Sequence record: PV340552.1
Reading direction: 5' to 3' (one strand)
Source: Escherichia phage PhiR12_3
Length of the DNA stretch: 61,979 nucleotides
The first letter of the stretch is position 1, and each line of letters starts with the position of its first letter. Under the pieces are notes generated by a model. The model was not told the DNA's origin. It saw only the letters and a program-made list of their open reading frames with translations, and did no database searches. Below are positions 24,193 through 25,287 of the stretch, one piece after another. Made by a program: the position numbers and the translations under genes.

Positions 24193-25287
24193 TTGTTCTA
24201 TGTGAGCACAGGCTCGCTTATCTCCTCAGGAAGATTAAAACCAGGCAAAATCAAACGTGTTTCAGCAAAGAGCGATCAAAACGGTATCATCGGAGAGTTT
24301 GATACCGAGTTTATGGATGATGCAAGGCATTATGAAAATTTTATAAGCGTTAATTTTTTTGGAGATGCTTTTTATCATCCTTATTGTGCCAGCGTAGAAA
24401 TGAAGGTGCATGTTCTTACATTAAAATCAAGTAAGTCCGACTTTAATGCAAAGCGCGGACTGTATGTTGCCAGTATGATTAATAAAGCTTTAAAGGGGCG
24501 TTTTAATTATGGTCAACAGTTATCGAGTTCCAAACTCAGAGATGGAGAATATTTCATCTCATTACCAGTGAAAAATAATGAAATTGACTGGTTTTTTATG
24601 GATAATTATATAGAAGAGCTGGAAGCGGCCCATATAGAAGAGCTGGAAGCATACCTGATAGCTGCTGGGCTGAGTGATTACCAACTAACGGAAAAAGATT
24701 ATCTTATCCTGGAACATTTTAAAAATATTGAATTTTCAGGCTTTCCTGTTACTGAGTTATTCTCAGTGTGCAATACAGGAAACATATTGTCTAGAGACAT
24801 CATAGAAAATAGTGGGGATGTTCCTTATCTTTGTGCTAGCCGTGATAATAACTCTGTTAGTTCTTATATCGCCTATGATGACTCACTCTTGGAAAAAGGG
24901 AACTGTATTTTTATTGGTGGTAAGACATTCGTTGTAACTTATCAGGAGCGAGACTTTTTTTCAAACGACAGTCATAATTTGCGACTCTATGTTAACAATG
25001 AGGATGGAAGGACAAAGTTTGCTTATTTGGGCATTATTTCATGTATTTATAGGTCTATTTCACATAAATATTCATGGGGGGATAGTGTTAGTAATAGAAA
25101 AATTAAGAACGATGTTATTTGGTTGCCAGTGAAAAATAAGTCACCTGACTTTTGTTATATAAATGACCTTATTTCAGTTGTTCATAAGCTTGTCATTAAA
25201 GATGTTGTCCAGTACGCAGAACGCAAAATGAACGCATACAGGCAAGCTATAACAAGTCGCGGTTATGATGATTCTGGTGTCAGTTAA
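24193..25287 (+). CDS. HsdS-like specificity subunit (two target-recognition domains)
   Basis: 364 aa from TTG 24193 (first start-type codon in frame); WGEFRIGDLF-type N-terminus, central IEELEAAH/IEELEAYL coiled-coil spacer, second TRD; AT-rich. Confidence 0.7.
   Translation: MFYVSTGSLISSGRLKPGKIKRVSAKSDQNGIIGEFDTEFMDDARHYENFISVNFFGDAFYHPYCASVEMKVHVLTLKSSKSDFNAKRGLYVASMINKALKGRFNYGQQLSSSKLRDGEYFISLPVKNNEIDWFFMDNYIEELEAAHIEELEAYLIAAGLSDYQLTEKDYLILEHFKNIEFSGFPVTELFSVCNTGNILSRDIIENSGDVPYLCASRDNNSVSSYIAYDDSLLEKGNCIFIGGKTFVVTYQERDFFSNDSHNLRLYVNNEDGRTKFAYLGIISCIYRSISHKYSWGDSVSNRKIKNDVIWLPVKNKSPDFCYINDLISVVHKLVIKDVVQYAERKMNAYRQAITSRGYDDSGVS
24608..24650 (+). repeat. Tandem duplication (19 identical nt, 24-bp period) in central spacer of specificity gene
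   Basis: ATATAGAAGAGCTGGAAGC at 24608..24626 and 24632..24650. Confidence 0.9.

Follow-up and report, generated by a model that had tools for sequence, protein, structure and literature searches.

A 24-bp tandem repeat of variable copy number in the central helix of a prophage-encoded BcgI-like Type IIB specificity subunit

Results

The RM-S locus of PhiR12_3

We analyzed a stretch of 61,979 nt from Escherichia phage PhiR12_3 (PV340552.1), referred to below as the window. Between the Q antiterminator (20432–20962) and the lysis genes (28599 onward) of this lambdoid prophage lies a pair of genes, one for a nuclease and methyltransferase (RM) and one for a specificity subunit (S). The features of the pair are as follows, with target-recognition domains abbreviated TRD and conserved helices CR.

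21484–24133, plus strand: RM gene, PD-(D/E)xK nuclease and N6-adenine methyltransferase (Pfam, homology), containing a heptamer array
24124–24174, plus strand: putative -1 frameshift cassette, with heptamer G_GGA_AAG (24124–24130), RM stop TAA (24131–24133) and a 13-bp hairpin (24136–24148 with 24162–24174)
24130–25287, plus strand: S coding region as probably translated, entered from the RM frame at 24130
24163–24579, plus strand: TRD1, allele type A (Pfam Methylase_S; AlphaFold2 and Foldseek matches to type I and IIB S subunits)
24589–24663, plus strand: CR1, central conserved helix, residues 154–178 (AlphaFold2 model)
24610–24633, plus strand: repeat unit 1, IEELEAAH (ATA GAA GAG CTG GAA GCG GCC CAT; 24 bp), with an exact 19-nt copy at 24608–24626
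24634–24657, plus strand: repeat unit 2 (terminal), IEELEAYL (ATA GAA GAG CTG GAA GCA TAC CTG), with an exact 19-nt copy at 24632–24650
24727–25140, plus strand: TRD2, allele type X (Pfam Methylase_S, AlphaFold2), the commonest TRD of the family
25150–25257, plus strand: CR2, C-terminal conserved helix, residues 341–376 (AlphaFold2), antiparallel partner of CR1

Residues of S are counted from 24130. The first canonical start codon of S, TTG at 24193, already lies within TRD1. In Stx phages the toxin genes are found at this position, a moron slot flanked by Q and the lysis genes, which here is filled by the RM-S pair. Just downstream is a NanS-p-like esterase of 657 aa with DUF1737, SASA and DUF6645 domains (25898–27871).

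A BcgI-like Type IIB system

The RM protein joins an N-terminal nuclease and a gamma-class N6-adenine methyltransferase in one polypeptide. The methyltransferase matches Pfam N6_Mtase (4e-21), with DFATGSAG preceding NPPY. The N-terminus carries a PD-(D/E)xK-like motif (..RPDVKLL..VLIEYKGYKD), where the match to VRR_NUC taken by itself is weak (E 0.0033, below the Pfam cut-off). However, RM is 60% identical over 675 aa to the RM of the Helicobacter pylori HP1472 locus, which has recorded VRR_NUC and N6_Mtase matches, and between S and its H. pylori counterpart the identity is 48%. In the interval from the Q antiterminator to the lysis genes, the SASA/DUF1737 esterase is the sole large ORF apart from RM and S, and we found no gene for an HsdR-like translocase/ATPase; in related loci the RM-S pair likewise stands alone, without HsdR. 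Given the RM fusion, the homology to H. pylori BcgI-like systems and the lack of HsdR, the system is a BcgI-like Type IIB RM+S enzyme and not a Type I enzyme, its activity being predicted from sequence. The initial annotation, which had taken S for a Type I specificity subunit, is therefore corrected here. Membership of the Type IC HsdS family (EcoR124I, EcoDXXI, EcoPrrI) was considered separately and rejected: the repeat unit is the 8-residue IEELEAAH and not TAEL, and the partner is an RM fusion.

Krebes et al. described HP1471/HP1472 and JHP1364/JHP1365 of H. pylori as BcgI-like Type IIB systems, with Hpy99XXII methylating TCAN6TRG (PMC3936762); the related HpyUM032XIII methylates CYAN7TRG (PMC4450513). 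These systems are homologous to that of the window, with the same architecture and a two-unit CR1 (IAELEQCR-LAELEAYL). They differ in that the window system is located in the late region of a lambdoid prophage, and in that their CR1 units have diverged at the DNA level (~12 nt shared), whereas those of the window share 19 nt.

Architecture of the S subunit

The AlphaFold2 model of S (81 homologues; mean pLDDT 91.7, pTM 0.76) places in order TRD1, a 25-residue helix (154–178), a linker, TRD2 and a 36-residue C-terminal helix (341–376). Foldseek matched it to the type I S subunits 1YDX, 1YF2, EcoKI and EcoR124I (7BST_A), and to the Type IIB BsaXI (8W0P_C). Pfam, the model and Foldseek agree on the HsdS-like layout TRD1-CR1-TRD2-CR2. 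The S subunit of BsaXI (Type IIB, cryo-EM 8W0P), which assembles as (RM)2S (PMC11997821), has this layout as well; the BsaXI RM is much larger, however, with knob and paddle domains, and its S is separately translated. The likeness to the EcoR124I S subunit is one of fold, found by Foldseek, and a sequence-level PDB search returned no match to that subunit. More generally, neither S nor RM matched any PDB chain by sequence, NCBIfam held no model for S, and the S gene had 0 matches in 50,697 phage records.

The repeat within CR1

The 19-nt sequence ATATAGAAGAGCTGGAAGC occurs as two exact copies (24608–24626 and 24632–24650) at an offset of 24 nt, and Tandem Repeats Finder reported 24610–24661 with period 24 and 2.2 copies. 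The two Methylase_S domains flank the repeat. Both units are in frame in S, as residues I161–H168 and I169–L176, so that, as in EcoR124, an in-frame tandem repeat lies within the central helix that separates the two TRDs. The initial annotation was thus right both in describing a 19-nt repeat with a 24-bp period and in placing it between the recognition domains. When the mononucleotides of the window were shuffled 50 times, no 15-mer was repeated within 100 nt, and we estimate the chance expectation of a 19-mer repeated within 100 nt at ~2e-5. The opposite strand has no ORF of at least 60 aa at the repeat. Elsewhere in the window, a 52-nt exact direct repeat with a 48-nt period (43461–43560) forms an in-frame tandem duplication of 16 aa within a 497-aa ORF (42801–44294).

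Unit 1 is the one duplicated in alleles with three and four units, where its copies are identical at 24/24 nt; the last two residues of the terminal unit are YL in almost every homologue (FL in L060). A frameshifting ON/OFF role for the 24-bp repeat was also considered and ruled out, because the unit is divisible by three; alleles with one to four units keep the S frame open.

Frame-shifting arrays in RM and S

A perfect (GACCAGC)x83 array (21501–22081) lies inside the 5' coding region of RM. Of the three frames, two are opened by upstream ATGs, at 21484 and 21492, and the body of RM lies in the remaining one (frame 2). To judge from these reading frames, the RM gene is OFF in the window, because 83 copies put its body out of frame with both ATGs. 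Related E. coli prophages have arrays of 30–120 copies, about half of those examined being in frame: RM is in frame in L002 (66 copies), L004 (120), L005 (64), and L006 and L007 (30). The H. pylori systems also have a repeat-based switch, a poly-G tract in S, in place of which the window system has the 7-nt array in RM. We found nothing relevant to the GACCAGC array in the literature searched. On the other strand, PGAP calls this array a "YXWGXW repeat-containing protein".

Immediately behind CR1, an 8-nt repeat (GCGGACTC)n is found in S alleles whose TRD2 is of another type (L006, L007, L008, ~4060–4200; E. coli matches H31–H37). It encodes GLADSRTR repeats, and its length differs among strains by +8, +16, +80 and +136 nt. 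Out of frame it truncates S, as in L006, where a half-subunit results. The CR1 repeat can be compared with the simple sequence repeats of hsdS/hsdM phasevarions, in which repeat tracts are likewise found between TRD-coding regions. Phasevarion tracts, however, mostly have units of 1–8 nt and shift the frame (ON/OFF or half-S), whereas the present unit is a multiple of three, encodes helix and keeps the frame. Atack et al. hypothesised that in-frame changes in tracts beside the coiled coil alter TRD spacing (PMC7383803).

The RM-S junction

RM ends in G_GGA_AAG TAA, and S continues in the -1 frame through the conserved linker VNSPLSDKLRSVEWGE. We compared this junction across many phyla (the window, L003, L005, L010 and L012–L092). 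The heptamer was present in 82/82 loci, as GGGAAAR in 80 and CCCAAAG in 2 (H. pylori), always in X_XXY_YYZ register and 39 nt upstream of a VEWGE anchor. The RM stop directly follows the heptamer in 77 loci, and is TAG in 54 of those 77. A divergent E. coli RM variant has A_AAA_AAG instead. The hairpin begins 5–6 nt downstream; its columns form standard pairs in 96.7% of cases, versus 36–57% when the partner column is slid, and two of its pairs show true covariation (UA/UG/CG/GC and AU/GU/GC/CG). The hairpin of the window has a folding energy of -23.3 kcal/mol (z = -4.7). A second small hairpin (24122–24142; GCGGGAA..TTCCCCGC), spanning both the slippery heptamer and the stop codon, can form as well, and the 5' arm of the downstream stem would be in competition with it.

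On these sequence features, the junction looks like a programmed -1 frameshift that would yield RM and an RM-S fusion. Such products would fit the 2RM:1S stoichiometry of BcgI, and also the functional M-S fusion engineered from EcoKI (PMC3510504). In the H. pylori systems, too, S has no start codon downstream of the RM stop; Krebes et al. noted its absence and took it as a sign of inactivity (PMC3936762). We found no description of programmed frameshifting in restriction systems in the literature searched, including the GeneTack paper and the part consulted of a 2016 recoding review.

Copy number among close relatives

Among 5,426 complete E. coli genomes, the S gene was matched in 30 and covered over its whole length in 20. 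Eighteen of these 20 genomes have two units and two (SCU-104 and JNEC-KY173) have three, the first two of which are identical at 24/24 nt in both. Compared with the window over the 7.2 kb that follow the heptamer array, JNEC-KY173 (L002) shows 16 SNPs and a single gap, for which the 24-bp unit accounts exactly. Together with alleles from a large protein collection (numbered P), unit numbers sort by recognition domains as follows.

TRD1-A with TRD2-X: two units (window, 18 E. coli genomes), three (L001, L002, P0004–11), four (P0001, P0002)
TRD1-B with TRD2-X: one unit (P0015, 84 member sequences), two (L003), three (L004, P0030)
TRD1-B with TRD2-Y: two units (L006, L007), three (L008)
TRD1-C: three units (L005, with the variant IEELEASH; P0016), four (P0014)
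Salmonella set: two, three and four units (P0040/42, P0046 and P0038)

Natural alleles therefore exist that differ essentially in repeat number alone, as in EcoR124, both in the pair formed by the window and JNEC-KY173 and in the series of one to four units on fixed TRDs. On one TRD background, alleles with two, three and four units are each found on many contigs (for three units, P0004 on 107 and P0006 on 69); P0049 could not be located on any contig. The comparison of copy number among homologues that the initial annotation had proposed thus reveals a polymorphism of one to four units among alleles sharing recognition domains. Short tandem repeats can be mis-assembled, and we considered whether the differences could be assembly or sequencing artefacts. 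There is next to no chance of this: the arrays are at most 96 bp, well under read length, and different laboratories have recovered the variants in separate complete genomes, while numerous independent protein clusters and species contain them too.

In other E. coli alleles, the repeat is flanked by a TRD1 or a TRD2 of another type. Matches between the S gene of the window and alleles L003–L008 start or stop at the central repeat (24594–24657), so the repeat looks, at the sequence level, like a crossover point for the shuffling of recognition domains as well.

The ancestral state and the turnover of units

The central helix of the family consists of 8-residue units with consensus I-A/E-E-L-E-A-x-x, the terminal one ending in YL. 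In distant homologues its consensus is FIAELEAER-IAELEAYL, that is, two units. We counted units in 81 loci, comprising the window and 80 loci with a readable central region from a scan of one genome per species. Of these, 67 (83%; 68 in another count) have two units, nine have three and five have one. The three-unit loci belong to Saccharibacteria, Clostridia, Vibrio, Rikenellaceae, Flavobacterium, Lentisphaerae, Alistipes and Microcystis, each with its own sequence variant. In eight of the nine, the first two units are identical at 24/24 nt, and in Microcystis (L010) the closest pair differs at 1 nt.

From these sequence comparisons we infer that two units are the ancestral, family-wide state and not a fresh duplication, and that alleles with one and three units arose repeatedly. 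Since the copies in three-unit alleles are identical or nearly so at the DNA level, in unrelated lineages and with their own variants, they are recent, independent duplications. The tandem duplication described by the initial annotation is not a recent one in the window, where the two-unit state (consensus IAELEAER-IAELEAYL; 67/81 loci) is the old one. The same annotation had named a finding that would tell against variation in specificity, namely that all homologues carry the same two copies as part of a conserved coiled coil. Its first half fails, with one to four units observed, but its second half is partly true, since the two-unit state is ancestral in a conserved helix.

The repeat could then be a structural pseudo-repeat of a conserved helix, its copy variants being neutral or slightly harmful products of slippage that leave target specificity unaffected. 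The antiquity and dominance of the two-unit arrangement (67–68 of 81) favour this explanation, and some E. coli copies are indeed decaying (with a frameshifted TRD2 in L009 and a truncation in L006). In addition, the E. coli literature searched contained no bipartite motif attributable to the system, and a search for methylome or cleavage data on its alleles found none; a methylome paper on STEC O111 gives GATC, CTGCAG and CRARCAG alone, for strains that may or may not carry it. However, the units do not behave as a static sequence. In two-unit alleles, the same codon is used at 204/268 same-residue positions between units (0.76). Codon usage within the same gene predicts 0.41, and the expectation between loci is likewise 0.41 (binomial P = 1.5e-31). 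This match at synonymous sites indicates concerted evolution, by ongoing gain and loss or by conversion, and not a frozen structural motif. Variants also recur in many phyla and mostly adjoin intact RM genes (~680–715 codons), and alleles of two, three and four units are each widespread on a single TRD background. Finally, a continuous helix longer by 8–16 residues and tethered at both ends would, according to the models, be hard to fit without movement of the domains. Despite the BsaXI result described below, which speaks in its favour, we regard a pure pseudo-repeat as rather unlikely.

Discussion

Possible effect on target spacing

The known system that the present repeat functionally most resembles is that of EcoR124I/II, where two versus three TAEL units in CR1 give GAA N6 RTCG versus GAA N7 RTCG (PMC3874165). 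As in these Type IC HsdS subunits, a short in-frame tandem repeat in CR1 lies between the TRDs, alleles differ in the number of repeats, and CR2 is unchanged. There are also differences. The present unit is of 24 bp and 8 aa (IEELEAAH), that of EcoR124 of 12 bp and 4 aa (TAEL); the present range is of one to four units and recurs across many phyla. The host enzyme here is a Type IIB RM+S and not a Type I R2M2S1, and the effect on spacing, demonstrated for EcoR124, is proposed here by analogy. With this qualification, we lean towards the reading in which copy number would set the gap between the two halves of the target site.

The repeat would then be a length-variable module in CR1 of a prophage-encoded BcgI-like Type IIB specificity moiety. 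Tandem direct repeats of 19–24 nt undergo slipped-strand mispairing or unequal exchange, and units would be gained and lost by slipped-strand mispairing during replication or by unequal exchange between adjacent direct repeats. Since CR1 is predicted to be tethered to a recognition domain at both ends, each 8-residue unit should lengthen the helix by ~12 angstrom and turn it by ~80 degrees, and the domains would be pushed apart. The non-specific gap of the bipartite target would consequently widen by a fixed step per unit, which from our own geometry may be 2–4 bp, with 2–3 likeliest if rotation dominates as in EcoR124. Since 24 bp is divisible by three, a change in unit number would alter specificity while the gene stays on, and this layer would come in addition to the heptamer ON/OFF array, a separate element in RM.

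The AlphaFold2 model of a four-unit allele shows CR1 as one continuous 41-residue helix with CR2 unaltered. CR2 has a constant length (34 aa between anchor residues) at every CR1 unit number; a compensating change in its length was looked for and none was found. Two observations count against the proposed effect on spacing. Two units are by far the commonest number (83%), as expected if other lengths are mildly deleterious. Moreover, the 8-residue step breaks the heptad register, and the pTM of the four-unit model is 0.57, against 0.76 for the S of the window.

The BsaXI results bear on all of these explanations. In a TRD1-CR1 half-subunit of this enzyme, CR1 deletions of 8–32 aa lowered activity and left the N5 spacer unchanged, the authors' conclusion being that CR length does not fully determine spacing (PMC9159934). 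These deletions count against an effect on spacing; however, CR1 has a free end in the half-S construct. They would agree with copy number as a dial of activity, in which the two RM subunits are out of alignment at non-canonical lengths, so that restriction or methylation becomes weaker or is lost. The lower pTM of the four-unit model points in the same direction, and the locus already has repeat switches in the form of the RM heptamer array and, for some alleles of S, the octamer (GCGGACTC)n. Yet the array upstream is already a dedicated ON/OFF switch, and the EcoR124 precedent is one of an altered CR1 length that retargets and does not inactivate (PMC3874165). Three-unit alleles are, furthermore, widespread (P0004 on 107 contigs, P0006 on 69). 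We therefore consider a role as an activity dial improbable. As for the copy in the window, it may not be expressed at all, because RM is out of frame with its start codons.

In its broadest form, the proposed effect on spacing would make the 8-residue CR1 unit a selected, family-wide ruler, retargeting BcgI-like Type IIB enzymes to the same half-sites at other spacings. In enterobacterial lambdoid prophages, this ruler would be one layer of a stacked cassette, together with the RM heptamer ON/OFF array, the -1 frameshift (giving an RM-S fusion and free RM), the octamer array that truncates S, and the shuffling of TRDs at the repeat. We put forward this extended version tentatively, as a possibility on the doubtful side. 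In the literature searched, we found neither the 8-residue unit nor its polymorphism described.

If the number of units does set the spacing of the half-sites, the alleles described here would constitute a natural series of one to four units on identical recognition domains. Such a series could answer a question raised by EcoR124, namely how the coiled coil absorbs a change of CR1 length on one side and converts it into base pairs of spacer. It would also provide a simple rule to engineer new spacings into Type IIB enzymes, whose applications include 2b-RAD sequencing. For the prophages themselves, it would mean that the restriction systems they carry diversify their targets by cheap, reversible slippage, besides ON/OFF switching.
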